Assembly: GCA_001822095.1 (NCBI GenBank)
Contig: MHPP01000024.1
Span: 1-48,961, forward strand
Reading direction: 5' to 3'
Origin: Candidatus Staskawiczbacteria bacterium RIFOXYC1_FULL_38_18
GTDB taxonomy: Bacteria > Patescibacteriota > Minisyncoccia > Minisyncoccales > Staskawiczbacteraceae
Length of the DNA stretch: 48,961 nucleotides
Position 1 is the stretch's first letter. Every line of letters begins with the position of its first letter. The translations under genes were made by a program, and so were the position numbers. Below, one piece after another: positions 2,714 to 48,780 of this stretch. The notes under the pieces were generated by a model. That model made no database searches. It worked only from the letters and a program-made list of their open reading frames with translations, and was not told the origin of the DNA.

Positions 2714-2743
2714 ATAAAAAAACTGCTGACACTTGTCAGGCAG
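2714..2743 (-). terminator. intrinsic terminator after GC1
   Basis: Stem ctgctga/tcag(g)cag (2723-2743) followed on the minus strand by a T7 run (A-run 2716-2722). It begins right after the TAG at 2746-2748. Confidence 0.55.
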
Positions 2744-2745
2744 TA

Positions 2746-3012
2746 CTACTTGTTAATTCTTTCCAGCAAAAGCTGTATTTCCCGATGGCCCTTTGCTATT
2801 CTTGCTTTGCTCAGCTTCCATACGGTAAATACGCAAGCGATGCTCAAAGGAAACCCTGTCGCAAAAACGATGACGAGGTAGTTGCTATACCCCAAAATGA
2901 CTGTTGCTGTAATGGTTAACAGCCAAAAGTTCAGACAAATAACCACTGCTTGTTGGACAGCCCTCCTGACCCTGTGGTTGTTTGTTATCCTAGGATGAAA
3001 TGTAATGCGCAT
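2746..3012 (-). CDS. GC1: small hypothetical membrane protein (GC-rich cassette)
   Basis: Internal ATG of track ORF 2746-3084. The product MRITFHPRITNNHRV...VVICLNFWLLTITATVILGYSNYLVIVFATGFPLSIACVF has two TM segments. AAGGGGG lies upstream, and the unit has its own terminator. It is GC-richer than rlmN. Confidence 0.35.
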   Translation of the reverse strand: MRITFHPRITNNHRVRRAVQQAVVICLNFWLLTITATVILGYSNYLVIVFATGFPLSIACVFTVWKLSKARIAKGHREIQLLLERINK

Positions 3013-3056
3013 AACCCCCTTCTTCCTACAAAATGGTAAAGGACGATACATTATTA

Positions 3057-3084
3057 ATGCTATGCTTTGCCATATGAATGTCAA
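3057..3084 (-). promoter_or_regulatory. weak promoter candidate for GC1 (TTGACA-16-TAGCAT)
   Basis: The -35 TTGACA (3084-3079) overlaps the rlmN stop codon. The -10 is poor. Confidence 0.3.
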
Positions 3085-4097
3085 GCTTTTTTACTCTCTG
3101 TGGCAAACTGCCCGCAAGCTGCTTTTATGTCGTCCCCAAACCGATATCTTTGTACAAAATTTATGTTTTCTTTTTCAAGTAGTTTTTTAAAAGCCCCGAC
3201 TCTTTTTGTTTCAGATGGCTCAAACGAGCCGGTCTTGTTGTAAAGTATTAAATTCACAAAATATAGTTTTTTTCGCATCAATTTAGCAAGTTGAACAGCA
3301 CACTCATCAGAATCATTAACATTTTTGATTAAAACATATTCAAACATTACTTTTCTTTTTGTTTTTTTAATATATTCGTCAACTGATTTTAAAATATTTT
3401 TTAGAGAATATGTTTTATTCACAGGCATTAATTCTGTTCTTAGTTTATCGCTTGGCGCGTGCAAAGAAATGGCCAAGTTAAGCTGGAGTCCCTCTTCACT
3501 AAATTTTTTTATTCCCTCAACAATTCCGCAAGTTGAAACAGAAATTGACCTTGCTCCAATATTAAAAAAATCCTTATTATTTAAAATTTTTATTGACTGC
3601 ATTACATTATCGTAATTCAAAAACGGCTCCCCCATTCCCATGAACGTCACGTTCGTGACGTAATTTTTAATTTTAAATTTTAAATTTTTAATATATCTGT
3701 CAAAAAAAATCACCTGTTCTAAAATTTCGCTTGCTGTTAGATTTCTGACAAAACCCATTTTTCCCGTAGCGCAAAATGCGCAATTCATGGGGCATCCCAC
3801 CTGTGAAGAAACGCAAACCGTGTTTCTTCCATCTGCATGCCTCATTAAAACAGATTCTATTTCCAGCCCGTCAAATAATTTTATTTTAGCTTTTATACTA
3901 TTTTTATCTTTTGCCACTAAAATATCCGCTTTAATATCCAACGGGCACTCTTTATTTAATTTATCGCGCAAATCTTTTGTAAAAAAAGTTGCCTCATTCC
4001 AGTCAGAAATGAAGTTTTTAAAAACCGCCTCATTTGCCTGTTTTAAGCGGTATTTCGGCTTGTTTTCAAGTATTTTTTCCAGTTTTGTTATGTCCAT
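3081..4097 (-). CDS. rlmN: 23S rRNA/tRNA adenine-C2 methyltransferase RlmN (radical SAM)
   Basis: 338 aa. Radical-SAM cluster GCPMNCAFCATG, GMGEP motif, and C-terminal conserved Cys (AACGQ). Confidence 0.9.
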   Translation of the reverse strand: MDITKLEKILENKPKYRLKQANEAVFKNFISDWNEATFFTKDLRDKLNKECPLDIKADILVAKDKNSIKAKIKLFDGLEIESVLMRHADGRNTVCVSSQVGCPMNCAFCATGKMGFVRNLTASEILEQVIFFDRYIKNLKFKIKNYVTNVTFMGMGEPFLNYDNVMQSIKILNNKDFFNIGARSISVSTCGIVEGIKKFSEEGLQLNLAISLHAPSDKLRTELMPVNKTYSLKNILKSVDEYIKKTKRKVMFEYVLIKNVNDSDECAVQLAKLMRKKLYFVNLILYNKTGSFEPSETKRVGAFKKLLEKENINFVQRYRFGDDIKAACGQFATESKKA

Positions 4098-4150
4098 TAA
4101 ATTGTTTATAGCCTTTTTTCTTGTTTTATGCCTGCCTGCCGGCTGGCAGG

Positions 4151-4182
4151 CAAAAAAATAAGCGACAGCTGGAGACTGTCGC
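4151..4182 (-). terminator. intrinsic terminator after GC2
   Basis: Stem gcgacag(4162-68)/ctgtcgc(4176-82) followed on the minus strand by T7 (4152-58). A second hairpin gcctgcc-ggct-ggcaggc sits at 4134-4151. Confidence 0.65.
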
Positions 4183-4199
4183 CTTTGGTGTGCTTCTGC

Positions 4200-4499
4200 C
4201 TACGACTGAGTCAAATGGCTATAGTTTTGACGGGTTGCCACCATCAGGAGAAACTCCAGTCTCCGGGCCCCGCCAATCTTAAAGTCGTTGTTACAGCCCT
4301 CCCACAGCTGACCTATTGCGGTAGATGCTGGGGACGAAAAACGAGCTTGAGCCCCGCTTGCAAGTGGGCAAAATGCAAGCGTTACTCCAGTCGTCAATTT
4401 TTTTCTGACCGGCAGAAGGACCCAAAAGCCCCACGCCAAAACCAGAACAGAAAAGAACAACGGGTTGGCTCCAATGAGCCAAACATCTTGCTGGCTCAT
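4200..4499 (-). CDS. GC2: hypothetical small membrane protein (GC-rich cassette)
   Basis: 99 aa with an N-terminal TM (NPLFFSVLVLAWGFWVLL). GGGAGG at 4505-4510 lies 5 nt before the ATG. The unit has its own promoter and terminator on the minus strand. Confidence 0.55.
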   Translation of the reverse strand: MSQQDVWLIGANPLFFSVLVLAWGFWVLLPVRKKLTTGVTLAFCPLASGAQARFSSPASTAIGQLWEGCNNDFKIGGARRLEFLLMVATRQNYSHLTQS

Positions 4500-4542
4500 T
4501 TTTGCCTCCCTTCAAGTTTCAGTTCAGAAACCAGATATTCTT

Positions 4543-4570
4543 ATTATATACAAAATTAATTCTGTGTCAA
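4543..4570 (-). promoter_or_regulatory. consensus sigma70 promoter for GC2 (TTGACA-16-TATAAT)
   Basis: TTGACA at 4570-4565 lies inside the 3-prime end of the LTD gene. TATAAT is at 4548-4543. Confidence 0.6.
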
Positions 4571-5879: not shown

Positions 5880-5906
5880 AAAAAAAGAAGCCCGAAGCTC
5901 CCGGGC
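5880..5906 (-). terminator. intrinsic terminator after GC3
   Basis: Minus strand reads gcccg-ggagctt-cgggc followed by TTCTTTTTTT. Confidence 0.55.
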
Positions 5907-5933
5907 ATAACTGAACAACAAAGAACAAAACGG

Positions 5934-6467
5934 CTAAGCACAACCGACAGCAGACAGAAGTTCATCGGGAAGCGAAGCCGATAAAATCGCGCAGGACGGC
6001 TTTCTCAACGGCGGAGGCGTGAAACTACAAACCTCTTGAACGTACTCCATTCTCTGGCAAGTCCAGACCTCAAAAAGTAACTCATGCCATGGCTCGGGCA
6101 GGAAAAGGACTCTTGAAATGCTATCGCATGGATTCGGGCTAAACTTAGGTTTTCCCTTTGCGTGCGAATTATACGCCACAGCCCTAAAGCAGTTTCTCCC
6201 CTCTGTGAGCTCGGAGAATAACCCGTCCAAGCTTTTAATTCCCGAAAACCCAATGTCGGCCCAGCTAACATGGATTTCCCTACCTTTTGGCAAAAAGGGC
6301 GTAAAAACAATTCCCCTTTTCCAAGGACTAAGCCTGACACATGTTTCAAGTTTTTTTTCAGCCCCATTAAGAGCAAACCTTGCCTTCAGAAAGACCACTG
6401 CTGTTTCAATCAACTTTGGCAGAGGTATCAGGTTTTGCCTGATTACTTCCAGTTCAGTGGCATTCAT
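5934..6467 (-). CDS. GC3: hypothetical protein (GC-rich cassette)
   Basis: 177 aa. GGAG (6476-79) lies 8 nt before the ATG, and a minus-strand terminator follows. Competing frames 6005-6376(-) and 6118-6474(+) lack such signals. Confidence 0.55.
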   Translation of the reverse strand: MNATELEVIRQNLIPLPKLIETAVVFLKARFALNGAEKKLETCVRLSPWKRGIVFTPFLPKGREIHVSWADIGFSGIKSLDGLFSELTEGRNCFRAVAYNSHAKGKPKFSPNPCDSISRVLFLPEPWHELLFEVWTCQRMEYVQEVCSFTPPPLRKPSCAILSASLPDELLSAVGCA

Positions 6468-6547
6468 GTTTTAAACTCCGTTGGGTTGTAGTGTCCGATA
6501 GCTGTAATTAAAAAGTATTATAAAATAATAAATTATTTATTAAAAAC

Positions 6548-7555
6548 CTATCGAGTTTTTATTTTAAGCAAAAGTTTTGATTCCCGTGCAGTTGTTAATG
6601 CTTGTTGAAATAGAAAAATTGCCCCCCTGTAATCTTTAATATCACCGCTCATTTTAATTGTTCCCTCGACTATCTTTTGTTCGGCTTTTTCTAAATTCTT
6701 CTGAACTTTTAAAACAACCTCATTCTTAATTTTTCCTTTGTCCGCTTCAATCAATTTATTAACTTCATTAATTGCATTTTGAGCCGATTGCAATCTATTT
6801 TGAGCTATTTTTTCCAGCGCAACCGACTTTTCCGGCTGATTTTCGCCTGTTGTATTGTTTTCATTTTCCACGCTGTTTACAGAGATTGCCCCCGAATTAA
6901 AGGCCTCCTTGCTTGCATTGTCAACTTCAATTATTAAAGAATCCATTTGCTCTGTGGTTTCTTCTCCGCCCAAAGCAGATCCGCCTATGGCGGACAAAAC
7001 TGCGCTATGAGCTTTTAGGGTTGCTTCAAAACTGGAGGCAATTTTTGCCGCAGCGTTATACATTTTTGCGTTGTTTAACTTTTCAATGCTTTTTACCACC
7101 TTATCAACCCTTGCATTAAAATTATTGTTTATTCTTATTTGAATACCCGGCAAAAGTTTCCCTTCAACCGCCAGCTGTTCGGCTTCCTGCAATCTAACTT
7201 CGGCCAACTGTATATTCAAGTCTGTTTTTGCTTCGTCGGAAAACGCCAAAACTTGCAAAACGTTTTCATTCACCCCCACTTTTACCGGGTATAAAATGTC
7301 TCCCGGAAGAGCGGCATTGGCCTGCACACTCACAACTCCTCCGGTGCACAAAACTACTGCCAAAGCTGAAACAAAAATATAAACTGGCTTTAACCTTGGC
7401 GAGAACACGGTGCCCCAAAAAGTCCTCTTTTGCGCAGGCAGAGAGTTCTCTTTCATAAAGACCAAAACAGCCTCTTTAATAGAATTTTTCTTTTCCTTTT
7501 CCAGTTTTACTTGTTTTGCTTTCCCAAAAAGTTTTTTTATTGGATTATCAAACAT
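6548..7555 (-). CDS. DUF5667-like single-pass membrane protein; putative anti-sigma partner
   Basis: 335 aa. One TM followed by LPGDILYPVKVGVNE...LAEVRLQEAEQL. There is a 1-nt gap to the upstream sigma gene. Confidence 0.6.
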   Translation of the reverse strand: MFDNPIKKLFGKAKQVKLEKEKKNSIKEAVLVFMKENSLPAQKRTFWGTVFSPRLKPVYIFVSALAVVLCTGGVVSVQANAALPGDILYPVKVGVNENVLQVLAFSDEAKTDLNIQLAEVRLQEAEQLAVEGKLLPGIQIRINNNFNARVDKVVKSIEKLNNAKMYNAAAKIASSFEATLKAHSAVLSAIGGSALGGEETTEQMDSLIIEVDNASKEAFNSGAISVNSVENENNTTGENQPEKSVALEKIAQNRLQSAQNAINEVNKLIEADKGKIKNEVVLKVQKNLEKAEQKIVEGTIKMSGDIKDYRGAIFLFQQALTTARESKLLLKIKTR

Positions 7556-8194: not shown

Positions 8195-9142
8195 ATGAAT
8201 ACATTAATTAAAAAGTCAACAATTGCAATATTAACCTTGGCAGTGGTGGGAATAACAGCCATGCCTTTAATGGCAAGCGCCGACAGCTTTGTGCGCATTA
8301 GAAACGGAGTAAACAGCGTTGTTATTCGGTCAAATGTGGGAGAAAACGGAAATATGGTGTCAATTAACGGCGTTACGCTCAATAACACCGCCGCCCAAGA
8401 CGCCCGCAAAACATATAACACAGCAGTAAAAAACGCCAATAAGACTTATACGGATGCAAGAAAATCAGCCCGCGATAAAATGAGAACCGCATTATCTTCT
8501 GCAGGAAACGACTTCTCAAAACGTATGACAGCCTACACAACATATTTGTCCGAAATTTTAGCGGCGTTTAACCAGAGGTCAACAGCCAAGGCAACCGCAT
8601 TGCAGGCTTATATCAACGCCCTTAAAGCAATACAGTCTTCTACAAACCAGGCTCCAACAGCAAACAACCAAAGCGTAAGCACAAATGAAGAAACGCCAAA
8701 AGCTATTACCCTAACAGGAAGCGACCCGGAAAGTTCAGCATTAACATACTCTGTTGTTGCAAACCCAAGCCACGGAGCATTGTCTGGCACAATACCAAAT
8801 CTGACTTACACTCCAGCAACAAATTATTCCGGCTCTGACAGCTTTACCTTCAAAGTTAACGATGGGACTCAAGACAGCAACACAGCGACAATTTCAATTA
8901 CGGTAATTGCCGTAAATGATGCGCCGGTAGCAACAGCCCAAAGCGCTTCATTAGCTAAAAACGTCTCATCGGCAATTACCTTAACAGGAAGCGACCCCGA
9001 AAACTCAACATTATCTTACTTTGTTGTAACAAACCCGGTTCACGGAACATTATCTGGCACAGTGCCAAACTTAACCTACTTGCCCGCAACAGATTACACC
9101 GGATCAGACAGTTCACCTTTAAGGTTAATGACGGAAGCTTAG
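8195..9142 (+). CDS. secreted tandem-95/cadherin-like repeat protein; its last repeat is broken by a frameshift (intact reading would end at 9183)
   Basis: Start MNTLIKKSTIAILTLAVVGITAMPLMASA (signal peptide). Two repeats follow: ITLTGSDPE.S.L.Y.VV.NP.HG.LSGT.PNLTY.PA..Y.GSDSFTFKVNDG...ISITV.AVNDAP. Confidence 0.7.
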   Translation: MNTLIKKSTIAILTLAVVGITAMPLMASADSFVRIRNGVNSVVIRSNVGENGNMVSINGVTLNNTAAQDARKTYNTAVKNANKTYTDARKSARDKMRTALSSAGNDFSKRMTAYTTYLSEILAAFNQRSTAKATALQAYINALKAIQSSTNQAPTANNQSVSTNEETPKAITLTGSDPESSALTYSVVANPSHGALSGTIPNLTYTPATNYSGSDSFTFKVNDGTQDSNTATISITVIAVNDAPVATAQSASLAKNVSSAITLTGSDPENSTLSYFVVTNPVHGTLSGTVPNLTYLPATDYTGSDSSPLRLMTEA

Positions 9143-9224
9143 ACAGCGCGGTAGCCACAGTTTCAATCACAGTAAATCCGTAAAAAATAAAAAAGTAGCA
9201 ATATAATTAAAAAAAATTAATAAC

Positions 9225-9488: not shown

Positions 9489-9530
9489 AACCGCCCGACG
9501 TAAAAAAGTATAGGGCGGTTTTTTTGTTTT
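9489..9530 (+). terminator. intrinsic terminator
   Basis: aaccgccc ... gggcggtt stem followed by TTTTTTTGTTTT. Confidence 0.7.
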
Positions 9531-9557
9531 AAAAATAATATCAATACTGCCACCCCA

Positions 9558-9601
9558 TACTTACTCTATATACCTGCGATAGCATTTATACAGCGTAATC
9601 A
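9558..9601. repeat. direct repeat copy 1 (pairs with 10236-10280)
   Basis: CTTACTCTATATACCTGCGATAGCATTTATA + CGTAATCA is shared with copy 2, with 2-3 mismatches. Confidence 0.85.
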
Positions 9602-10177
9602 GTTTATCTTGAAAAACTTCTTATATTCCCCATCCTCCCCAATATCTTCAACCACCAACATTCTTATCTCTTTATCTGATAATCCAAAGAATGATTTTAG
9701 TATTTTTACTTCTTTCGCGCAGTTATATGGAATTACCCATACGCTTTTTTGCAACATAGTAAATCCCATGCTTATCAATTTTCCCCTCAACGCTTCTCTG
9801 TGCAATCTTTTTAGCTCGGTTATGTCAAACAACAGCACCCTCCATTTTCCATCCCACCTTTTTGGCTTGTTTATTTTTAAATTATCTACCTGCATCCATC
9901 CAGCTTTTTTCTTTCCTTTTTCGGTTAGAGAAACAAAGATTTGATTATTTTTTTCGTAAAAATTTACATATCCTTGTTCTTTAAGCCTATAAAAAGTGTC
10001 ATATACTTTTTTGCTTTTATACTTTTTCAAATCCTTAAAAACGCGTAATAAATTTTGTATAAAAAAGGGCGAAGTGGCTGCAATAGTTATCATTCCACCA
10101 AGCAATAATCCGGCCAGAATACATCCTGTTATTTCCGATGACTTTTTAAAACAATAATTATTTCTTTTAATATTCAT
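9599..10177 (-). CDS. PaaX-like regulator (wHTH + Cas2-like ferredoxin-fold domain) with N-terminal TM
   Basis: 192 aa. YRLKEQGYVNFYEKNNQIFVSLTEKGKK (wHTH), then WDGKWRVLLFDITE..R..LRGKLISMGFTMLQKSVWVIPY. Confidence 0.5.
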   Translation of the reverse strand: MNIKRNNYCFKKSSEITGCILAGLLLGGMITIAATSPFFIQNLLRVFKDLKKYKSKKVYDTFYRLKEQGYVNFYEKNNQIFVSLTEKGKKKAGWMQVDNLKINKPKRWDGKWRVLLFDITELKRLHREALRGKLISMGFTMLQKSVWVIPYNCAKEVKILKSFFGLSDKEIRMLVVEDIGEDGEYKKFFKIN

Positions 10178-10235
10178 AGCAAAAATTATTAAACATTATT
10201 AAGCGCAACGTTTATTAATAATACCACAACAAAAC

Positions 10236-10280
10236 CACTTACTCTATATACCTGCGATAGCATTTATATAACGTAATCAA
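10236..10280. repeat. direct repeat copy 2
   Basis: See copy 1. The repeats are 678 bp apart and bracket exactly one gene. Confidence 0.85.
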
Positions 10281-10294
10281 TAAATTTTGATTGC

Positions 10295-10323
10295 TTGACA
10301 ATTTTATTTTATTATCATAATGT
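10295..10323 (+). promoter_or_regulatory. sigma70 promoter for GC4 (TTGACA, 15-17 nt, CATAAT/TAATGT)
   Basis: TTGACA at 10295-10300. AT-rich spacer, then overlapping -10 candidates at 10316-10323. Confidence 0.5.
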
Positions 10324-10361
10324 ATTTGTAGTACCTCCTCACCCGTTACAAGGAGCCAAAA

Positions 10362-10664
10362 ATGGCGAAGCTAAAAATGAAAATGGCGATGTTGCTGATT
10401 CCGGCGGACGAAGTCATGAGCGACTTCTGCTACAACTTTGCCCGAACGCTCCTCAAAAAGCTAGTGCGTCTTGTCGCAGAAGACCGCGTATTCAAGGACA
10501 AAGTAGGCTCTCGCGGAAAGCTTACCGATATCGCATACGCAGTACTCCGTGCCCTTAGAAATCAGGTCAACCCTGCTACCGGGACTTCAACGATTTTTGA
10601 CAGAAAGGAGTTTGACGAATTCATGGCAACTGCCGATGAATTCCTCGCCATTTTCGAGGCCTAG
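10362..10664 (+). CDS. GC4: hypothetical protein (GC-rich cassette)
   Basis: 100 aa. AAGGAG at 10350-55, own promoter, and a strong terminator. Confidence 0.55.
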   Translation: MAKLKMKMAMLLIPADEVMSDFCYNFARTLLKKLVRLVAEDRVFKDKVGSRGKLTDIAYAVLRALRNQVNPATGTSTIFDRKEFDEFMATADEFLAIFEA

Positions 10665-10712
10665 ACCGACCAGCTCAAACACAACGCCTGGTCGTACTAC
10701 GGCCTAACGCAA

Positions 10713-10747
10713 AAGCGTCCCAATTTTATCAGGACGCTTCTTTTTTT
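10713..10747 (+). terminator. intrinsic terminator after GC4 (convergent with the clpB end)
   Basis: aagcgtcc (10713-20) / ggacgctt (10732-39) followed by CTTTTTTT. Confidence 0.7.
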
Positions 10748-13459: not shown

Positions 13460-13530
13460 GTTTATATTATTATAAATAAATATTAACTTTTTATTACTAA
13501 CAATACCATATTTTTATTACATTTTCAAGA

Positions 13531-13561
13531 TAAAAAAAGCTTTGCGGTATTACCGCAAAGC
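13531..13561 (-). terminator. intrinsic terminator after GC5
   Basis: Perfect 10-bp stem gctttgcggt/accgcaaagc followed on the minus strand by T7. Confidence 0.75.
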
Positions 13562-13870
13562 CTAGTGTACGCTGATTTGGGACTTGTCGTCGATCAAATA
13601 AAAACTATTAAAATTTATTTTCGGGTCACGACACACATGCGCAAGCTCTTCTAACTCCATTTCCCTAAACTCGCATTCGCAGATGTCTATGTCATTTGCC
13701 TCCGCGTAGCCCATAGCAAGTGCTTTAGTATCAAAAACAAAAGGAACCTGACGTTCACCTCCGCAGAGAATCTTACCATTACACAGCATTACTGTGTAAG
13801 GCTTTACATTAATTCTCGTTAAAGGCTTTACGCTACTTTTGACTCTTCTGTGCCCCATCATTTTTTGCAT
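13562..13870 (-). CDS. GC5: hypothetical protein (GC-rich cassette)
   Basis: 102 aa. GGGAGAG at 13875-81, with a consensus promoter and terminator. Confidence 0.6.
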   Translation of the reverse strand: MQKMMGHRRVKSSVKPLTRINVKPYTVMLCNGKILCGGERQVPFVFDTKALAMGYAEANDIDICECEFREMELEELAHVCRDPKINFNSFYLIDDKSQISVH

Positions 13871-13899
13871 TTTTCTCTCCCAGTAAAGGTACTAAAATA

Positions 13900-13928
13900 A
13901 ATATAGCACGGGTTAAATTTAGTGTCAA
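13900..13928 (-). promoter_or_regulatory. sigma70 promoter for GC5 (TTGACA-17-TATATT)
   Basis: TTGACA at 13928-13923 and TATATT at 13905-13900. Confidence 0.65.
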
Positions 13929-13931: not shown

Positions 13932-13960
13932 TTGACATTGAGACTTGTATATGATATAAT
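13932..13960 (+). promoter_or_regulatory. consensus sigma70 promoter for GC6 (TTGACA-17-TGaTATAAT)
   Basis: TTGACA at 13932-37; extended -10 TGATATAAT at 13952-60. Back-to-back with the GC5 promoter. Confidence 0.7.
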
Positions 13961-14016
13961 TAATATATGGGGTGAATTCTAAAATCCCCTTAAAAAATCT
14001 ACAAAGGAGACCTGTA

Positions 14017-14343: not shown

Positions 14344-14360
14344 ACACAACTCCAATATAT

Positions 14361-14406
14361 CCAGCGCGATTCGCCTAAAAAACGGACGCGCTGGAATCCT
14401 TTTTTC
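14361..14406 (+). terminator. intrinsic terminator after GC6
   Basis: ccagcgcg/cgcgctgg stem (18-nt loop) followed by AATCCTTTTTT. Confidence 0.5.
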
Positions 14407-37102: not shown

Positions 37103-37126
37103 CAAAAAAAAGAGGCGTATGCCTCC
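37103..37126 (-). terminator. intrinsic terminator after GC11
   Basis: Minus strand reads ggaggc-atac-gcctc followed by T8. Confidence 0.55.
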
Positions 37127-37134
37127 ATGTGTTT

Positions 37135-37554
37135 TCAGGTTGTGTCATGCTCGTGGCCGCAATCTTGGCACTTATTCACGTGCACGCGGTCTTGGCCAAA
37201 AAGCTCCATGCGATTGTGCTTCATTGGGCCTCCGCATTTAAAGCAAACTTGCCATGGGTGGCCCCTTTTTCTCTGCCTGAAAAAATTGCACTTTGCGCAT
37301 TTTTCTCCAACAAAAACTTCCTCCTCTCCTCTTCCTCTGCCGTCCAATCTGCTACAGTAATGTTCGTCGAGCACCATAATTCTTTTGAAATCATGGTCGC
37401 AATCGCTTTGAACTTTTTTTGCCTCCTCAACCAATTCCTGCCTTGCATCGTTAAGGCGCTTGCACAAGTCAAACACCCGTTGGAGCAACTCCAAAACCTC
37501 CGGAGTTTGCGGAAAATCTTCTCTTTTTTCCATCGGCACGATAGCTTGAAACAT
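37135..37554 (-). CDS. GC11: hypothetical zinc-ribbon-type protein (GC-rich cassette)
   Basis: 139 aa. GGGAG lies 6 nt before the ATG. Three CxxC pairs (CAKC, CFKC, CQDC) plus a CDHD/HYC region. Own promoter and terminator. Confidence 0.65.
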   Translation of the reverse strand: MFQAIVPMEKREDFPQTPEVLELLQRVFDLCKRLNDARQELVEEAKKVQSDCDHDFKRIMVLDEHYCSRLDGRGRGEEEVFVGEKCAKCNFFRQRKRGHPWQVCFKCGGPMKHNRMELFGQDRVHVNKCQDCGHEHDTT

Positions 37555-37589
37555 GATTATCTCCCTGTCTTTGTAAAAGGCCTATTATG

Positions 37590-37618
37590 AATTTATATCA
37601 AAAATCCACAAAAGTCAA
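37590..37618 (-). promoter_or_regulatory. promoter candidate for GC11 (TTGACT, 15-17 nt, TATAAAT)
   Basis: TTGACT at 37618-13; TATAAA/TAAATT at 37597-90. Confidence 0.45.
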
Positions 37619-40077: not shown

Positions 40078-40104
40078 ACAATTTTATTACTTATTTATTA
40101 TTTT

Positions 40105-40464
40105 TTAAAAAATTTCCATACTAAGGGTCATTGCTGAATATAGGGCGAAGCCAGTAATAATTAAAGTGACCGACAATAACGCTATTAATAAATATTTTAT
40201 TATTTTTTTTCTACAATATTTATTCTTAACGAGGAAAATTAGCGCCAACAATAAACCAATAAATTGCAATGCAATTACAAATTTTAAATAGCTTAAATTA
40301 TCTGAATTTTGTAAAAAATTATCTCGTATGGGGTGGACGTTACTTGTTCTACTAGATTGAAAAAATTCATAATAAAAATTTACCACTGGGCTCCATAATA
40401 TTTCCGGGACAATGAACATCGCGCCGGAAACCCATAACCAAATTTTTTGCGTTTTAGATAACAT
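40105..40464 (-). CDS. integral membrane protein
   Basis: 119 aa, 4 predicted TM segments, AT-rich like the core genome. Confidence 0.5.
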   Translation of the reverse strand: MLSKTQKIWLWVSGAMFIVPEILWSPVVNFYYEFFQSSRTSNVHPIRDNFLQNSDNLSYLKFVIALQFIGLLLALIFLVKNKYCRKKIIKYLLIALLSVTLIITGFALYSAMTLSMEIF

Positions 40465-40514: not shown

Positions 40515-40556
40515 TAAAAAACCCCGGGTGATGCTTTTGCGAGTTCAACGCGGGGT
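40515..40556 (-). terminator. imperfect hairpin + T-run after GC12
   Basis: ccccg ... cgggg closing a structured loop, followed on the minus strand by TTTTTTATTTT. Confidence 0.4.
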
Positions 40557-40580
40557 ATATGACTGCAGAAGTTAAAGGTT

Positions 40581-41573
40581 CTATCGTTTGCCCGATTGGC
40601 CTTCCAATTCTATGGCCATTTGAGCCAATTTGGCCTGTTCTGTCTCCAGAACTTTCAGCGCGCGTTGTCGATCCGCTTCTTTTTGTTCTTTGCATGACTT
40701 TTCGTACAGTGCTTTTATACGCTTCCGTTCTCTTTCCCTGACTCTGTGCAGAAGAACAACTTGAGCAGCAACCGAACCGCCGAGCACTGCTTCCTGTAAA
40801 CTGGCTGGCTTCCTATAGTTTGAAGAGGAAAAAGCCCTCTCGTGAGGAAAGCTGTAACTCTTGCCCATGGCCAGCTCGACCAGCTTCTTCAAAGATGCCT
40901 CATCCAGTTCCTGAGTGTTCAACCAATTAAGCTCCTTTAATTGGTCTAGAATCTCAATGAACTGCGGTCTAGTAGCAACCAGCCGGTTCCTAACCGACTC
41001 GTCGGTTGTTTCGTTATAGCATCGCTCAGACATTGAACTAAATTTCCATCCGAGCCGGGTAAATTCTCTCATAAACTCTCGCAACATTTCCTGCTGGTGC
41101 CGGATGTTGGCATCTGAGTAAAAAGAGCTGTCGAAGTAATTTTTCCTGTCCGGCCGTAGAAACCACAGGACTTTTTGAAACAGAACATCGTGCTCCAGTA
41201 TCCACCACCACAAAGGGTGGCCTCCGTCCCTTGCCCCGCCATTAAAAAACTTCGCGCAGAGAACGCCAAACGCCTTTTCCGAGATTTTCTGGCGGTTCCT
41301 GGCAATCTCATTATTGTAATCATATTCCTGCCTGTCGTGAAAATCATAACCGCCATCGTAGCCGTTGGCGATATCCAAAAGAAGCGACACTAATTCCGCT
41401 TCCTTCCACCACCACTGCGCCTCCCCGGTCGTCAACAAATGCAACAGTCCGAGCAGGTCGCCAAGCTTTTTGGTTTCCTTCCATTTTGCCATCCACTCCT
41501 CGAGCGAATAAGCGGTTGGCACAAATGTCATCAACGGATGCTTGGCCTTAACAACTCGCGGATCTTGAGACAT
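40581..41573 (-). CDS. GC12: 330-aa hypothetical protein (GC-rich cassette), Trp-rich with a basic coiled-coil tail
   Basis: GAGGAG lies 6 nt before the ATG. Long clean ORF with a C-terminal RVRERERKRIKALYEKSCKEQKEADRQRALKVLETEQAKLAQ. Confidence 0.75.
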   Translation of the reverse strand: MSQDPRVVKAKHPLMTFVPTAYSLEEWMAKWKETKKLGDLLGLLHLLTTGEAQWWWKEAELVSLLLDIANGYDGGYDFHDRQEYDYNNEIARNRQKISEKAFGVLCAKFFNGGARDGGHPLWWWILEHDVLFQKVLWFLRPDRKNYFDSSFYSDANIRHQQEMLREFMREFTRLGWKFSSMSERCYNETTDESVRNRLVATRPQFIEILDQLKELNWLNTQELDEASLKKLVELAMGKSYSFPHERAFSSSNYRKPASLQEAVLGGSVAAQVVLLHRVRERERKRIKALYEKSCKEQKEADRQRALKVLETEQAKLAQMAIELEGQSGKR

Positions 41574-41590
41574 GACACGCTCCTCTCATT

Positions 41591-41620
41591 ATTATGCCCA
41601 GTTACTTAGGGCGTTTTCAA
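41591..41620 (-). promoter_or_regulatory. promoter for GC12 (TTGAAA-18-CATAAT)
   Basis: TTGAAA at 41620-15; CATAAT at 41596-91. An additional TTGACA sits at 41665-60. Confidence 0.5.
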
Positions 41621-41700
41621 AAAACAACTCATTTAAAAGTTTATTCCATTCCGCCAAATTGTCAAGCAAACAAAAAAGCGAAGACCCGTTCTCCGATTTT

Positions 41701-44330: not shown

Positions 44331-44383
44331 AATTTACATATTTTATCATACTTTTTATAGTATTGCAATACCCTTAAAAACAA

Positions 44384-44424
44384 TAAAAAAGGGTCGCAAG
44401 CAAACGCCATGTTTGCTGCGACCC
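44384..44424 (-). terminator. strong intrinsic terminator after GC13
   Basis: 14-bp stem gggtcgcaagcaaac/gtttgctgcgaccc (1 bulge) followed on the minus strand by T6. Confidence 0.75.
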
Positions 44425-44454
44425 CCGTGGGAAACCGCGAAGGCGAAGAAAGGG

Positions 44455-44865
44455 TTATCGGTTAAAGCAGGGCCGATGCCTCTTCAGCCAGCGACGGCGG
44501 CGCGGACGCCGCCTCCTTTGAGAGCGCTCTTTGCGCTTCAGTGTCGGGGCGACAAGGTCGGTTCTGCCAGCCAACAGCTCCACGAGCTCAAAATGGATTC
44601 CGACGTGGAACTTCTGCGAAAACCTCCACTTGATACTATGGATAGGCTCGGAAGGATCCGCATAGGCGAGAAACTCGCGCTGAGCGGAATCCATGCTACT
44701 CACGTGGCGAAGCACCGCTTTTCTTCGAAACGGCATACAAGATTCCTTCTTGCAAGAAACAGATCGGACAGAAAAGTGCCTCTTCTCTGTCCCGCCAAAA
44801 CGACAAAAAACTAGGATCACCCCCTTTCCCATTTCTTTGCCTTGTTGACAACGAACATATAACAC
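44455..44865 (-). CDS. GC13: hypothetical protein with Arg-rich tail (GC-rich cassette); start uncertain (GTG 44865 or ATG 44832)
   Basis: This is the only >=60-aa minus-strand ORF between a consensus promoter and a strong minus-strand terminator. The SD-proximal ATG (44858) is out of frame. Confidence 0.4.
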   Translation of the reverse strand: MLYVRCQQGKEMGKGVILVFCRFGGTEKRHFSVRSVSCKKESCMPFRRKAVLRHVSSMDSAQREFLAYADPSEPIHSIKWRFSQKFHVGIHFELVELLAGRTDLVAPTLKRKERSQRRRRPRRRRWLKRHRPCFNR

Positions 44866-44901
44866 CTCCCCTCTTTTGCCAAAGGAATGTATTATTAAAA
44901 A

Positions 44902-44930
44902 ATTATAGCTCTTGAAAAAGCCAAAGTCAA
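44902..44930 (-). promoter_or_regulatory. consensus sigma70 promoter for GC13 (TTGACT-17-TATAAT)
   Basis: TTGACT at 44930-25 and TATAAT at 44907-02. Confidence 0.65.
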
Positions 44931-44940
44931 TGTGTAGAAT
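44912..44940 (+). promoter_or_regulatory. pth promoter (TTGAAA-17-TAGAAT), near-leaderless
   Basis: The -10 ends 8 nt before the pth ATG (44949). It interdigitates with the GC13 promoter. Confidence 0.6.
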
Positions 44941-44948
44941 GATTAAAT

Positions 44949-45500: not shown

Positions 45501-45529
45501 TTGACAATTAATCTTCTTGGTGGCAATAT
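45501..45529 (+). promoter_or_regulatory. promoter for GC14 (TTGACA-17-TGgCAATAT)
   Basis: TTGACA starts immediately after the pth stop codon. Confidence 0.5.
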
Positions 45530-45655
45530 TAATCTAGCGGTATAAATAGCACCTTAAAATAAGATGCGCGACTTAGGCAATTGAATCCATCTGAAAAAAT
45601 TATGGGTGCAGTTGCGTGGGTCGCGTGTCAATCATCCAAAACATGGAGAGTCGTT

Positions 45656-46174
45656 ATGATCAAGCGCATTTTACTGATGGCGTTGATTATCGCGGCCATG
45701 ACGGCTGTGATGGCATGCTCCTCGGCGGTCGCGCAGGCAAAAAGACCAGCGCAACCATTTGTGGATACCGGGCCAATTTGGCAGGCTATTGCGCAACAGG
45801 AATTGCGGGAACAGCAAGAGTTCAGACTCTGGCAGCAACGCGGAATGACAACTCCCCAGATTTACTCCCAAACGCCAGCGAATCCGGCAAGAATGGCTGC
45901 CCAACTTCAGGCGGCGCGAGTGTGGGCATGGCAGCACAATCTGCCGCCCCCTTCCTCGTTTTCCCAGCAACAGCCAATGGTTGTTTACGACAATCAGCCC
46001 CAGCAAATGGCCCCGCAACAACGAACCCGACCCCAACCGAACGTTGTCCGCTCCGGCCCAAACGCAATGCCGGCAATGGGCTCTTTCATCTACGGCGCAA
46101 ACCGACCTGTGCAGACGTCTGCAAACAGAAATTGGCGGACGCCAACGGGACAGTCCGACCTACGCAAAAAATGA
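45656..46174 (+). CDS. GC14: secreted or lipoprotein-like Gln/Pro-rich hypothetical protein (GC-rich cassette)
   Basis: Internal ATG preceded by GGAGAG (45645-50). Signal peptide MIKRILLMALIIAAMTAVMACSS; Q/P-rich body. A terminator follows. Confidence 0.55.
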   Translation: MIKRILLMALIIAAMTAVMACSSAVAQAKRPAQPFVDTGPIWQAIAQQELREQQEFRLWQQRGMTTPQIYSQTPANPARMAAQLQAARVWAWQHNLPPPSSFSQQQPMVVYDNQPQQMAPQQRTRPQPNVVRSGPNAMPAMGSFIYGANRPVQTSANRNWRTPTGQSDLRKK

Positions 46175-46212
46175 CCGCGCCGACGCGTCGATATTGATTC
46201 TCCAGCTTCCAT

Positions 46213-46250
46213 GTCCTTTCCTTGCCAACCGGCAGGACAGGACTTTTTTT
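46213..46250 (+). terminator. intrinsic terminator after GC14
   Basis: gtcct..cttgcc-aacc-ggcagg..aggac two-part stem followed by T7. Confidence 0.6.
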
Positions 46251-46289
46251 GCTATTTTTCAATTTTCTAAGTATCATTATCATATAAAT

Positions 46290-48251
46290 ATGGATAGTTT
46301 GAATCAACTTTTAATAGTTGGAATACACCCCTACTTTTTGGAAAAGGAGGGGTCTTGGTATGCAGAAAATTTGGAAAAATTGCTTGATTCTCGCAATACT
46401 CAAACTTTTTTTGAGGATAACATAATTTTTTTGGAAAAAGACCATAGTTTTAATTTTTCGAGCTTCTTAAGAAAACTGGACGAAATGGGCTATGAAAAAG
46501 TTTTTAAGGTTACAGATCCCGGCGAATTTTCTCAGAAAGGCGGAATAATTGACGTATTCCCCATTAACACAAAAAATGCCGTGAGGCTGGATTTTTTAGG
46601 AAACGAGATTGATGAAATAAAAGTTTTAGATATTTTTGTTGCTGATGAGCAAAAATATAAAAATATTCTATTAAAAAAATTAAAGTCTCAAAAAATATTT
46701 TCTGAATTAAAAGGTCTAAAATCCGGAGACTATCTTGTTCATTTAGACCACGGCATAGGACGATTCTGCGGAATCGAGAAATTCGAAATCCATAATTCAA
46801 AATCAAAAACCGAATATTATGTGCTTGAATACGACAAAGAAGACAAGCTTTATGTCCCTTTGGGTTTGGAAAAAAAATTGTCGCGATACGTTGGTTTTAC
46901 CGATCCAAAAATTTCACGGCTTGGTTCGTCACTTTGGCAAAAAACAAAATATAAAATAAAAGAAGGGGTTGAAAAACTGGCAAAAGATCTTTTAGATCTT
47001 TACGCAAAAAAAGAAATTGTAAAACGCCCCATATATACAGAAGACAAAGAAATTGAGAGCCAATTGAGGGCGGGTTTTATATACGAGGAAACCCCCGACC
47101 AAATGCAGGCGATTGAGGATATTAAAAATGATTTGAGCAAAGAAACTCCAATGGACCGCATTGTTTGCGGAGACGTGGGCTTTGGAAAAACAGAGGTTGC
47201 CCTTCGCGCCGCCCTATTGGTAGCCGTCAATAGCAAACAAACAGCTTTAATTTGCCCAACAACAATTTTGGCAAACCAACATTTTAATAATTTTAAAAAA
47301 AGGTTTGAGAAGCTTCCCGTAAAAATTGCGATGATAACAAGGTTGCAAAACAAAAAAGAGCAGGAAAAAATAGCCGAAGAATTAAAGCAAGGGAAAATAG
47401 ACATTATCATTGGCACGCACAGGCTTTTGTCTCGAGATATAGAATTCAATAATTTACAGCTCTTAATAATTGATGATGAACAAAGATTTGGCGTGAAACA
47501 AAAAGAAAAATTAAGACAGATGAAGGTCAGTCTAGATGTTTTAAGCTTGTCGGCAACCCCTATTCCCCGCACAATTTATTTGGCGATGTCATCTTTCAAA
47601 TCCATCAGTTTGATGCAAACTCCCCCAAAAGGCAGGCTGGCTGTTAAAACAAAAGTTTTAGCATATGACAAAAAAGCAATTAAAAAAGCAATAAATTTAG
47701 AGCTTAAAAGAAAAGGGCAAATCTATTATTTGCACAACAGAATACAAACTATAGAAAAAACTGGGCACGAAATAAAAAAACTTTGCCGTAAAGCAAAAAT
47801 TAGCTTAATCCACGGCAGGATGCCAGAAATCAAATTGATAAAAATAATGGACGACTTCCAAAAAGGAAAAACAAATGTTTTACTGGCAACCACAATAATT
47901 GAAAACGGATTGGATATGCCAAACGTAAATACGATTATTATAGAAGACTCCACACGGCTTGGGCTTTCACAGGCGCATCAGATAAGGGGAAGAGTTGGCA
48001 GAAGCGACAGAGAAAGCTTTGCATATTTTTTCTATGATAAAAAATCCTTAACGCCCATGGCAAACGAAAGATTAAAAGCTCTCCAAGACAGCCAAGAATT
48101 GGGAGCCGGCTACAGAATTGCAATCCGCGACTTGGAGCTCCGTGGAGCAGGAAATATTTTGGGCAGAGAGCAATCTGGCGCCATAAACAAAATCGGGCTT
48201 AATTTATATTCTCAAATTTTAAGCGAGGCAGTTGAGAAGATGCGAGCATAA
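46290..48251 (+). CDS. mfd: transcription-repair coupling factor Mfd, minimal form
   Basis: Start moved to MDSLNQLL (ATG 46290). The track's upstream extension runs through GC14 and its terminator. CarD/TRCF domain GDYLVHLDHGIGRF; helicase motifs GDVGFGKTEVA, DDEQRFGV, QIRGRVGRS. Confidence 0.9.
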   Translation: MDSLNQLLIVGIHPYFLEKEGSWYAENLEKLLDSRNTQTFFEDNIIFLEKDHSFNFSSFLRKLDEMGYEKVFKVTDPGEFSQKGGIIDVFPINTKNAVRLDFLGNEIDEIKVLDIFVADEQKYKNILLKKLKSQKIFSELKGLKSGDYLVHLDHGIGRFCGIEKFEIHNSKSKTEYYVLEYDKEDKLYVPLGLEKKLSRYVGFTDPKISRLGSSLWQKTKYKIKEGVEKLAKDLLDLYAKKEIVKRPIYTEDKEIESQLRAGFIYEETPDQMQAIEDIKNDLSKETPMDRIVCGDVGFGKTEVALRAALLVAVNSKQTALICPTTILANQHFNNFKKRFEKLPVKIAMITRLQNKKEQEKIAEELKQGKIDIIIGTHRLLSRDIEFNNLQLLIIDDEQRFGVKQKEKLRQMKVSLDVLSLSATPIPRTIYLAMSSFKSISLMQTPPKGRLAVKTKVLAYDKKAIKKAINLELKRKGQIYYLHNRIQTIEKTGHEIKKLCRKAKISLIHGRMPEIKLIKIMDDFQKGKTNVLLATTIIENGLDMPNVNTIIIEDSTRLGLSQAHQIRGRVGRSDRESFAYFFYDKKSLTPMANERLKALQDSQELGAGYRIAIRDLELRGAGNILGREQSGAINKIGLNLYSQILSEAVEKMRA

Positions 48252-48275
48252 AAAAAGCGAAGGTGTTTCCTTCGC
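48250..48275 (-). terminator. intrinsic terminator after GC15 (hairpin shared with the mfd 3-prime end)
   Basis: gcgaagg-tgttt-ccttcgc followed on the minus strand by T7. Confidence 0.65.
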
Positions 48276-48295
48276 GCTTTGCCGGATTTCTTCGG

Positions 48296-48709
48296 CTATC
48301 GTTGAGAGTCGCGCGCCCTCGCTTCGTCAAGCAATTTCCACCTTTGGCCCAAATTGCGATCTGGCACGCCAAATAGGATATTGACTTTGCGAACCAAATC
48401 TCGACCTTCTTTCTCGGCTCCTTCCACTGATGCGATTTGTTCAGCACACCACTGTCGCAACTTTCCAAATGTGTCGATGTTAATCGGCACTCGCTTTCCA
48501 ACGGCAACGCCAGACTTTATGGAAAGGACGTAGTGCGTCTTTGACACCATTGTTGCGTACACAAGTTGCAACGTCCCGTCTAAGTGACCTAAGTGCGCTT
48601 CGCAATCGGCACGAGGAAAATTAACCGGGATTTTGTCGCTGTCAGAAAAAGAATCCGCGACAACAAGCGTTTCACCATACATGCTCAGCCGGATCGATTC
48701 AACCGACAT
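48296..48709 (-). CDS. GC15: hypothetical protein (GC-rich cassette)
   Basis: 137 aa from the internal ATG (MSVESIRLSMYGE...), with AAGGAG (48717-22) 7 nt upstream. Own promoter and terminator. Confidence 0.6.
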   Translation of the reverse strand: MSVESIRLSMYGETLVVADSFSDSDKIPVNFPRADCEAHLGHLDGTLQLVYATMVSKTHYVLSIKSGVAVGKRVPINIDTFGKLRQWCAEQIASVEGAEKEGRDLVRKVNILFGVPDRNLGQRWKLLDEARARDSQR

Positions 48710-48752
48710 GGCTTTTCTCCTTGACAATGACCTGTGGTTTAGACCGGTTTTT

Positions 48753-48780
48753 ATATTACTCCAAAACCTAAAAATTGCAA
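48753..48780 (-). promoter_or_regulatory. promoter for GC15 (TTGCAA-16-TAATAT)
   Basis: The palindromic TTGCAA at 48775-80 is shared as the -35 with the divergent topA promoter. Confidence 0.5.

Follow-up and report, generated by a model that had tools for sequence, protein, structure and literature searches.

The window analysed here is the whole of a 48,961-nt stretch (contig MHPP01000024.1, assembly GCA_001822095.1) of Candidatus Staskawiczbacteria bacterium RIFOXYC1_FULL_38_18, a member of the candidate phyla radiation (CPR), or Patescibacteria, and has an overall GC content of 38.7%. Its conserved genes are interspersed with 15 GC-rich open reading frames (ORFs), designated GC1 to GC15, which lie in the spacers between conserved transcription units and come with their own predicted expression signals, each forming a small cassette. 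All 15 ORFs proved intact at their original coordinates. The units are listed below with the promoters and terminators predicted from the sequence; fractions after promoters give the number of consensus positions matched, and GC at third codon positions (GC3) is written as third-position GC, to keep it apart from the cassette of that name.

2718–3084, minus strand: GC1 cassette; ORF 2746–3012 (88 aa, GC 0.438) with two transmembrane (TM)-like helices; promoter-like sequence 3084–3057 (10/12), terminator-like sequence 2739–2726.
4150–4570, minus strand: GC2 transcription unit; candidate ORF 4200–4499 (99 aa, GC 0.517); perfect promoter match 4570–4543 (12/12), terminator 4184–4160.
5880–6554, minus strand: GC3 cassette; ORF 5934–6467 (177 aa, GC 0.472); only a weak promoter in the consensus scan, terminator 5906–5890.
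10287–10747, plus strand: GC4 cassette; ORF 10362–10664 (100 aa, GC 0.495, third-position GC 0.59); promoter-like sequence 10287–10315, hairpin and T-run after the stop codon.
13527–13928, minus strand: GC5 cassette; ORF 13562–13870 (102 aa, GC 0.411); promoter 13928–13900 (11/12), 12-bp terminator 13563–13537.
13932–14406, plus strand: GC6 cassette; ORF 14017–14343 (108 aa) with an N-terminal TM helix; promoter 13932–13960 (12/12, with TG), divergent from the GC5 promoter.
14467–14806, plus strand: GC7 cassette; ORF 14545–14739 (64 aa; a 90-aa version starts from TTG at 14467), GC 0.600, third-position GC 0.74, best codon score of the 15; no convincing promoter in the consensus scan, terminator 14772–14796.
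14829–15200, minus strand: GC8 cassette; ORF 14867–15139 (90 aa, GC 0.458); terminator-like hairpin 14855–14839.
15365–16899, plus strand: GC9 cassette; promoter, leader of about 85 nt, ORF 15483–16847 (454 aa), terminator.
26715–27297, plus strand: GC10 cassette; ORF 26810–27241 (143 aa, GC 0.491); TTGATA-18-TATGAT at 26715–26744 (read by eye), hairpin followed by T8.
37100–37618, minus strand: GC11 cassette; ORF 37135–37554 (139 aa) with three CxxC motifs; promoter-like sequence 37618–37590, terminator 37126–37111.
40516–41665, minus strand: GC12 cassette; ORF 40581–41573 (330 aa, GC 0.487); promoter-like sequence 41665–41638.
44385–44930, minus strand: GC13 transcription unit; candidate ORF 44455–44865 (136 aa, Arg-rich tail, GC 0.530); promoter 44930–44902 (11/12), long terminator hairpin.
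45501–46250, plus strand: GC14 unit; candidate ORF 45656–46174 (172 aa, GC 0.566), Q/P-rich with a signal-peptide-like N-terminus; promoter-like sequence 45501–45530, terminator.
48247–48842, minus strand: GC15 cassette, antisense to the local core genes; ORF 48296–48709 (137 aa, GC 0.495; a 162-aa version starts at 48784); promoter-like sequence 48842–48813, terminator 48275–48257.

A preliminary description of this DNA held that the 15 ORFs are much richer in GC than their surroundings, and its hand counts of G+C in four 60-nt segments (35/60, 34/60, 14/60 and 21/60) are all exact. Mean GC is 0.498 (range 0.411–0.600) in the cassette ORFs against 0.365 (0.246–0.432) in the 38 other genes of the window, and mean third-position GC is 0.547 (0.43–0.74) against 0.347 (0.23–0.47), which bears out the claim (Mann‒Whitney p = 1e-8 for each). 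The shift is seen at all three codon positions and at four-fold degenerate sites (0.54 against 0.40), and it extends to the proteins, which are enriched in Gly, Ala, Arg and Pro and depleted in Phe, Tyr, Met, Ile, Asn and Lys. By a codon-usage score trained on the confirmed cassettes, the named frame ranks first of six for all 15 ORFs, GC1 included, with GC2 and GC14 near zero. In a 300-nt profile the units appear as sharp islands separated by AT-rich gaps (GC about 0.25–0.30).

The profile and a count of spacers agree with the earlier statement that the GC-rich units sit between conserved transcription units. Among spacers of at least 50 nt, 10 of the 18 internal ones and one more after mfd (11/19 together) carry a cassette, as does every spacer longer than 250 nt. 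Occupied sites make up about 30% of all gene-to-gene junctions, and most of them have a single gene; the only ones that resemble hotspots are clpB|htrA, with five units, and yqeY|ybeY, with four genes. Six of the 15 cassettes are antisense to a core that is otherwise fully co-oriented.

Most units appear equipped for independent transcription. A consensus scan predicts promoters for 11 of the 15 (12/12 matches for GC2 and GC6, 11/12 for GC5 and GC13, and 9–10/12 for GC1, GC4, GC9, GC11, GC12, GC14 and GC15), and that of GC10 was read by eye, giving the 12 that had been reported. When the flanks were read directly, a purine-rich Shine‒Dalgarno (SD) sequence was found 5–9 nt upstream of the start codon in all 15, also as reported, and a hairpin with a T-run, a predicted intrinsic terminator, after the stop codon in all 15. 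The scan itself returns terminators for GC1, GC2, GC3, GC5, GC7, GC8, GC11 and GC15; GC8, previously thought to lack one, has the hairpin listed above. The products show no paralogy among themselves, and no repeat family is common to the cassette borders. Precomputed Pfam matches on all called genes and a repeat search revealed no integrase, transposase, phage structural gene or att-like repeat in the window, and searches for tRNA genes (ARAGORN) and Rfam families (gathering threshold and E ≤ 1) returned nothing relevant. The preliminary description, which had noted neither paralogy among the products nor an integrase, transposase, tRNA gene or terminal repeat at the sites, was correct on these points.

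Contigs of strains, relatives and homologue loci used in the comparisons are labelled with L and a number. HisS has more than 100 relatives at 76–88% identity, the named ones mostly Candidatus Staskawiczbacteria, and the cassette sites were compared in contigs with a HisS 78–85% identical to that of the window (L074–L076, L078, L080 and L081) and in more distant ones, down to about 50%. The core order topA-mfd-pth-lepB-hisS-(72 aa)-yqeY-ybeY-ftsA-ftsZ-nrdD-nrdG-comEC-DUF6938 is kept in relatives. GC12, GC13, GC14 and GC15 are absent from about 20 syntenic relatives, and GC12 from its site in all relatives examined. The topA|mfd spacer is 99 nt in L076. At mfd|pth, L076 and L081 have no insert, L074 has an unrelated ORF of 212 aa, and L080 has a GC-rich tract of 868 nt, likewise with unrelated ORFs. 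The pth|lepB spacer is 90 nt in L074 and carries other, non-homologous GC-rich tracts in L075, L078, L080 and L081. The genes yqeY and ybeY are separated by 74 nt in L075; elsewhere their spacer holds DapB (L074), an AT-rich ORF of 205 aa (L076) or 6.2 kb of inserted DNA that includes a lipase homologue (L081). Between species, the GC-rich tracts at a given site are dissimilar in nucleotide sequence except beside the core genes. ORFs inserted in relatives are often GC-richer than the backbone (0.55 and 0.52 against 0.42 in L075; GC windows of 0.52–0.54 against 0.32 in L080; DapB 0.46 against 0.39).

Five cassettes are old residents of their sites. Orthologues of GC3, GC5, GC8, GC10 and GC11 occupy the same positions at 37–62% amino acid identity in L077–L079 (31% for GC11 in L127), and small core proteins in those pairs diverge comparably (YbeY 55–62%, Pth 57–70%, Prs 57%). 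In L079 the GC3 orthologue (37%, E = 1e-24) lies beside clpB/SNase/LTD and is GC-richer than its flanks, the GC5 orthologue (57%) lies beside clpB, and that of GC8 (38%, tBLASTn E = 1e-12) beside htrA; GC6 is not in the corresponding spacer of L079. The GC10 orthologue (62%, third-position GC 0.56) is found between DUF6938 and comEC in L077, and the site is vacant in L076 (32-nt gap). GC11 orthologues stand directly upstream of ybeY in L078 (44%) and L127, and the gene is absent from L074–L076 and L080–L082. Each of the five is missing from other close relatives. Conservation at identical positions, which the preliminary description had named as a mark of ancestral genes, thus holds for part of the set, and not every unit is a recent or independent acquisition.

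One site is polymorphic even between strains of the same organism, through the following segment.

9496–10740, no strand assigned: strain-variable segment with a PaaX-like gene and GC4, missing from strain contig L001.

L001 is otherwise 99.97–99.98% identical and has 25 nt of a different terminator loop in place of these 1,245 nt; the indel junctions fall inside terminator hairpins. The PaaX-like gene is flanked by a 54-nt direct repeat (9559–9612 and 10237–10290; 89% identical), which also extends into the promoter region of GC4 and may represent an operator or a scar left by recombination. With a fixed core order, and sites that are vacant or otherwise filled in relatives, the units belong to the flexible genome.

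The clearest record of movement is that of GC9. This gene has more than 340 homologues at 50–85% identity. A contig scan with the GC9 sequence alone gave no matches, and an alignment-based scan found 53 loci in GTDB species representatives, mostly labelled as Patescibacteria lineages (Paceibacterota, Yanofsky-, Vogel-, Falkow-, Levy-, Moran- and Collierbacteria, Saccharimonadia and others). Its three closest relatives with usable context are at other sites, two of them, in L072 and L073, with 82–83% amino acid identity. That of L072 lies between rplK and a dCMP-deaminase/dUTPase operon. That of L073 (83%) lies on a 10.3-kb contig (1–10348) whose genes, many of them small ORFs, are all on one strand and include a Dcm/R.HinP1I/Vsr system, a tyrosine integrase (phrog_216, E = 1e-27) and a 77-aa ORF with weak likeness to the major coat protein of filamentous (inovirus-type) phages (phrog_1646, E = 2e-4). 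In both comparisons nucleotide identity is about 79% over 15365–16899; the conserved block starts exactly at the −35 box (TTGACT, with a TG-extended −10) and stops past the T-run of the terminator, and beyond these limits the sequences are unrelated. The GC9 unit has demonstrably moved as a discrete promoter-to-terminator block, being found in three unrelated contexts. In more distant Parcubacteria it is next to ftsZ, next to pth or several kilobases away. The gene is also patchy, since only four homologues exceed 70% identity in the densely sampled Staskawiczbacteria, against the more than 100 close HisS relatives. A multi-gene island was considered and rejected, as GC5–GC8 never accompany the distant GC9 homologues.

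The moving block includes a leader with a small hairpin directly upstream of the gene.

15450–15476, plus strand: GC9 leader hairpin adjoining the SD, CUCUAAAA-CCCUU-AAA-AAGGG-AAGGAG.

The family motif, YCYAAAA-[CCNN]-A-rich loop-[NNGG]-AAAGGAG, is placed just 5' of the start codon (L011–L063, L072 and L073), and its stem covaries over 36 homologues (CCCC:GGGG, CCUC:GAGG, CCCU:AGGG, CCUU:AAGG and CCCA:UGGG). A strict descriptor of the motif matches just upstream of the gene at 33 of 56 homologue loci and only three times elsewhere in 3.54 Mb. The leader has no match in Rfam and is a candidate cis-regulatory RNA specific to the GC9 family. A separate, bidirectional hairpin with T-runs on both strands (15177–15197 / 15194–15177) is situated in the 5' region of GC8, in the AT-rich DNA that separates this unit from GC9; it is either an attenuator or a terminator that shields the two divergent units from each other.

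Modelling of GC9 (AF2, pLDDT 90) returned a single significant match in the PDB, 5ioo_A (E = 4e-8, target TM-score 0.70), which is AvpA, the C-type-lectin-fold variable protein of a nanoarchaeal diversity-generating retroelement (DGR). The predicted fold of GC9 resembles that of AvpA, with an additional N-terminal alpha/beta domain. Unlike DGR variable proteins, which are hypervariable, the GC9 family is highly conserved, the C-terminal region included, and the window holds neither a reverse transcriptase among its called genes nor a template/variable repeat pair. With no reverse transcriptase, no second GC9 repeat in the window and a conserved C-terminal region, GC9 was rejected as a DGR target.

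Searches with Pfam, PHROGs and PADLOC for all 15 products, and with NCBIfam for ten of them, gave no significant match; GC8 shows a weak, sub-threshold match to the Pfam family DAHP_snth_FXD (E = 0.003). An exhaustive phmmer search with seven concatenated ORFs (GC3, GC4, GC5, GC10, GC11, GC12 and GC15) returned 573 matches, the best 150 of which were listed. Among those listed, GC3 has one homologue, GC5 seven (49–58% identity, one named Staskawiczbacteria), GC10 twelve (35–62%) and GC11 about 20 (29–45%), and GC12 has more than 100 full-length homologues (27–49%) in Paceibacterota, Nealsonbacteria and other Patescibacteria. The named homologues are all Patescibacteria (Paceibacterota, Nealsonbacteria, Staskawiczbacteria and 'Patescibacteria group'). 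The remark in the preliminary description that the products match no recognisable family holds for the curated libraries; at least seven (GC3, GC5 and GC8–GC12) do belong to conserved families, none of which is in a curated library. GC12 is modelled as an all-helical protein (AF2, pLDDT 88.6) with no match in the PDB by Foldseek. TM- or signal-like segments occur in GC1, GC2, GC6 and GC14, and the strain-level single nucleotide polymorphisms (SNPs) in GC6 are all synonymous and at third positions (4/4). The PADLOC screen for defence systems found nothing among the 15, and a role in defence or host interaction is conjecture.

The 15 tracts are probably single-gene, transcriptionally self-sufficient, moron-like accessory islets, placed in spots free of mobile genetic elements (MGEs) and exchanged mainly among CPR bacteria. 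The set consists of many unrelated genes and is not one element, and most of the genes encode small CPR-restricted proteins. DNA from other, on average GC-richer, Patescibacteria would enter by natural transformation (the window includes comEC). If it came from a relative, it could integrate by homologous recombination in the conserved genes on either side; in a new context it might integrate by illegitimate recombination or arrive aboard an element with an integrase, as in L073. Of all insertions, selection would then retain only those that land in the gaps between transcription units and are supplied with a promoter and terminator of their own. Because of such selection, as proposed here, the orientation of units could look arbitrary (six of 15 antisense), and neither a recombinase nor repeats would be needed. 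The GC excess would be, at least partly, source composition that has not been erased, with a further force holding it high in old residents.

This account differs from the earlier one in further respects. A single high-GC donor had been envisaged, of which there is no sign, the named homologues being all Patescibacteria and one GC12 homologue being at the GC of its host genome. That donor, it was suggested, could be the host of the cell or a phage, of which there is likewise no sign (below). An unrecognised insertion route is not required, as recombination spots devoid of MGEs are documented (PMC5635113).

A general link between accessory status and high GC is apparent in relatives, where recognisable accessory genes clearly exceed their backbones in GC, as in the following examples.

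L072, 5283–8447: aconitase and isocitrate dehydrogenase (0.50–0.52).
L077, 1090–1935: GCS2 ligase (0.49).
L078, 253–771: Macro domain protein (0.51).
L074, 7120–7998: DapB.
L076, 1448–2185: Apyc1-like metallo-beta-lactamase.

The rule that GC-rich genes are accessory seems to be general in this lineage, and import from GC-richer genomes explains much of the excess, at least in part. The direction of change in GC9 is suggestive. In two AT-rich chromosomal copies, third-position substitutions from strong to weak bases (S>W) outnumber the reverse (W>S) by 39 to 16 and by 63 to 17; this net loss of GC is suggestive only, because the same three-taxon polarisation is erratic on core-gene controls. 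Expression-linked codon bias was rejected as an unlikely cause, given that rplK and nusG of a relative have the lowest third-position GC (0.25–0.27) and the GC9 homologue 0.52.

Several observations weigh against exchange with gradual fading as a complete explanation. Apart from the noise of the three-taxon polarisation in core-gene controls, GC4 and GC15 yielded only self-matches among the best 150 of the 573 phmmer matches, and homology in the large collections covers GC3, GC5 and GC9–GC12. The sole strain-level indel is a replacement inside terminator hairpins, with no microhomology junction resolved. Orthologues of GC10, GC8, GC5 and GC3 keep a third-position GC of 0.43–0.56 against 0.22–0.42 in their neighbours, which is unexpected in such old copies because 37–62% amino acid identity implies saturated synonymous sites. 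The third-position GC of GC9 exceeds that of flanking ORFs in 36 of 39 genomes, by 0.13 on average, and this offset, nearly constant even where the host is GC-rich, looks like a gene-specific equilibrium and not like a donor signature. Regression of GC9 on its flanks has a slope of 0.90 over host values of 0.22–0.67, and HisS exceeds its flanks by just 2.2 points of total GC. Candidates for what maintains the excess are repeated allele replacement through recombination in the flanks, GC-biased gene conversion (gBGC) and selection on the cassette.

Two other explanations treat the excess as maintained. The first would extend the exchange of islets to a portable pool of promoter-to-terminator cassettes common to Patescibacteria, relocating from one operon boundary to another, and onto integrative elements, without recombinases of their own and with their GC actively held above that of the resident genome; we regard this as conceivable but rather unlikely. 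GC9 would be its clearest example, and GC would be held by gBGC or by selection for context-independent expression. If it were true, the GC excess would mark a distinct evolutionary regime of genes and not a fading donor signature.

The second, which we likewise consider fairly unlikely, is that the cassettes are vertically inherited, lineage-specific genes whose high GC is a stable gene-specific equilibrium and whose patchiness reflects loss. Either gBGC, acting at spots prone to recombination, or selection on the mRNA or the cassette would keep this equilibrium. Five cassettes with syntenic orthologues that hold an elevated third-position GC at saturated divergence, and the consistent offset of GC9 with its slope near unity, set against the small excess of HisS, favour this explanation, as does the finding that gBGC raises third-position GC of recombining genes in bacteria (PMC4450053). 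It does not readily accommodate the presence of GC9 in three unrelated contexts at about 80% identity, one of them an integrase-bearing contig, its very patchy distribution in a densely sampled clade, or the roughly 20 syntenic relatives without GC12–GC15. In addition, the GC12 homologue of L160, a Patescibacteria genome of 43% GC, is not GC-rich and lies at host GC beside a restriction-modification (RM) system, and GC9 shows the net S>W flux in AT-rich hosts. Reported effects of gBGC in bacteria are smaller than the gap of 15–20 points in third-position GC seen here.

For part of the set the protein-coding status itself is at issue. That of GC2, GC13 and GC14 is unproven, because of GC that is flat across the three codon positions, opposite-strand ORFs, inconsistent gene calls and, for GC2 and GC13, well-folding transcripts. 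GC-rich islands in intergenic regions of AT-rich genomes are the classical signature of non-coding RNAs (ncRNAs), and these three units, possibly with GC1, might be structured ncRNA genes, which we judge unlikely. GC2 and GC14 have flat GC1/2/3 and low codon scores, that of GC2 being the lowest of the set. Both strands have long ORFs, and different gene callers place GC2 and GC13 on different strands; the GC2 tract has a rival 143-aa ORF on the plus strand that is called in other assemblies, and the GC13 tract a rival 164-aa plus-strand ORF that is annotated in GenBank. Strain variants in GC2 alter both frames and are uninformative as to which one codes. Strong predicted promoters and terminators bound transcripts of about 380–520 nt, the Arg-rich tail of GC13 is implausible, and the product of GC14 would be Q/P-rich and of low complexity. 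Fold z-scores are −3.2 for GC2 and −4.4 for GC13, but these values include the terminator hairpins. On the other side, there is no Rfam match even at E ≤ 1, the SD is properly spaced from the start codon in every unit, the named frame is the best of six, and relatives hold no homologous tract in which covariation could be sought. A conserved ncRNA in the pth|lepB spacer was rejected, as GC-rich tracts across species share homology only at their gene-proximal ends.

True phage morons, decayed prophage remnants or genes from the host of an episymbiont are a very unlikely source of the set. A promoter-ORF-terminator unit with deviant GC is the operational definition of a moron (PMC2920897), and the GC9 copy of L073 keeps company with an integrase and the coat-protein-like 77-aa ORF (E = 2e-4); L073 may be an integrative, perhaps filamentous-phage-like, CPR element with GC9 as a true moron. 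Against this, none of the 15 products matches a PHROG at E < 0.001 (GC12 is marginal, E = 0.0011), GC9 has no relative in IMG/VR, and a Foldseek search of BFVD with the GC9 model found nothing at E ≤ 0.001 (best 1.5e-3 over 123 residues). The neighbours are hisS, ftsZ, clpB, mfd and others in conserved order, the window is without phage structural genes, integrase or att-like repeats, and the named homologues are all from Patescibacteria, which are not plausible hosts.

A chimera of assembly or binning, for which only the abrupt changes of composition speak, can for practical purposes be dismissed as the origin of the AT/GC mosaic because the same junctions recur, at 99.5–100% identity by BLASTn, in 22–23 contigs from different samples and pipelines, and because related species have the same kind of mosaic. 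Those contigs carry exact copies of GC9 and GC12, come from independent ENA, JGI, NCBI and Logan assemblies of groundwater samples, and include GCA_001822165.1 and a 136.9-kb scaffold; the mosaic is real.

Exchange of one-gene accessory islets, the preferred reading, has counterparts in known systems. The moron concept is reportedly due to Hendrix and colleagues. Its criteria are a single inserted gene, its own transcription signals, deviant GC, occurrence in different backbones, and hotspots (PMC2920897). The cassettes resemble phage morons in being one-gene units between genes that are adjacent in relatives, with their own promoter and terminator and a deviant GC, in that different units are found at one site and, for GC9 only, in that the same unit appears in several backbones. 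They differ in that the backbone is cellular and has no phage genes, and in that several units are old residents. The earlier comparison with morons is therefore apt for the transcription signals, the composition and the several backbones of GC9, and not for the setting, which is no phage genome.

Many spots of horizontal gene transfer lack MGEs and show recombination in their flanks; such spots are more frequent in species capable of transformation (Oliveira, Touchon and Rocha 2017, PMC5635113). As at those spots, accessory genes in the window lie between syntenic core genes and turn over among relatives, and there is no integrase, transposase or tRNA; the presence of competence genes in the lineage is consistent with integration by flank recombination. 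In that study, transfer was concentrated in about 1% of spots (PMC5635113), whereas the units here are dispersed over most operon boundaries, and the inserts are GC-richer than the host, not AT-richer. In groundwater Patescibacteria, the predicted donors of most single-gene transfers were other Patescibacteria, and many of the transferred genes lack a characterised function (PMC12455944). Phylum and habitat are the same as here; promoter-to-terminator cassettes at operon boundaries, their GC excess and the GC9 family are not described in the passages of that work consulted here. Integron gene cassettes, CALINs and SALINs are likewise mobile units of one ORF each, in which the stop codon is followed by a sequence able to form a hairpin. 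The present units have promoters of their own, and their hairpins are ordinary intrinsic terminators with T-runs. No attC pair (RYYYAAC ... GTTRRRY) lies downstream of any of the 15, two such pairs being found in the whole window, and intI is absent. Because they lack attC and intI and have their own promoters, they are not integron cassettes.

Horizontally exchanged accessory islets are thus a known kind of thing. What appears to be new is how densely autonomous one-gene units populate a CPR chromosome, the direction in which their GC is biased and the persistence of this bias, and the GC9 cassette, with its sharp boundaries and a covarying leader hairpin specific to the family. CPR bacteria have tiny, streamlined genomes in which about half of the genes have no assigned function. 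The window locates much of this unassigned flexible gene content in operon gaps, as autonomous one-gene units, and a GC excess combined with an own promoter and terminator offers a cheap handle for telling accessory from core genes in AT-rich metagenome-assembled genomes. It also yields CPR-wide protein families for functional work, such as GC9, with its predicted C-type-lectin-like fold and leader RNA, and GC12, with its predicted helical fold and no solved relative. As a rule, acquired DNA is AT-richer than the recipient genome and then ameliorates. The persistent GC excess of old syntenic copies contradicts this rule, and should biased gene conversion or selection for portability be responsible, it would bear on the interplay of composition and gene flow in minimal genomes.

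The DNA between the cassettes had been described as core. It does consist of conserved genes, but also includes accessory DNA that is not GC-rich, namely the PaaX-like gene and the two features below.

29970–31966, minus strand: RM pair, MvaI_BcnI and N6_N4_Mtase (type II), inserted between nrdD and nrdG.
37657–40464, minus strand: lipase-like gene and a 119-aa ORF at the yqeY|ybeY site (GC 0.386 and 0.294).

The RM pair has a GC of 0.30–0.33 and is AT-richer than the core. The gene at 29262–29960 is nrdG (76% identical to the L076 copy), which encodes the activase, and in every relative examined it lies next to nrdD.

At the GC13 site (44331–44948), the divergent pth|lepB junction, which is conserved in relatives, marks a switch in gene orientation as well as in GC skew, and the cumulative skew has its minimum near 45.5 kb. 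A replication origin at this switch is unsupported, there being no cluster of DnaA boxes. Stretches of 44–50% GC also occur inside htrA (17251–17720) and the cadherin-like gene (8250–9150), and the htrA homologue of L077 is GC-rich throughout (0.47); compositional heterogeneity is therefore not limited to the 15 cassettes. Between near-identical strains, SNPs are clustered in the cadherin-repeat surface protein gene (8310–9013), which has internal repeats of 270 nt, and in the lipase-like gene (38857–39508). The clusters look like short recombination or gene-conversion tracts, and neither gene flanks a cassette.

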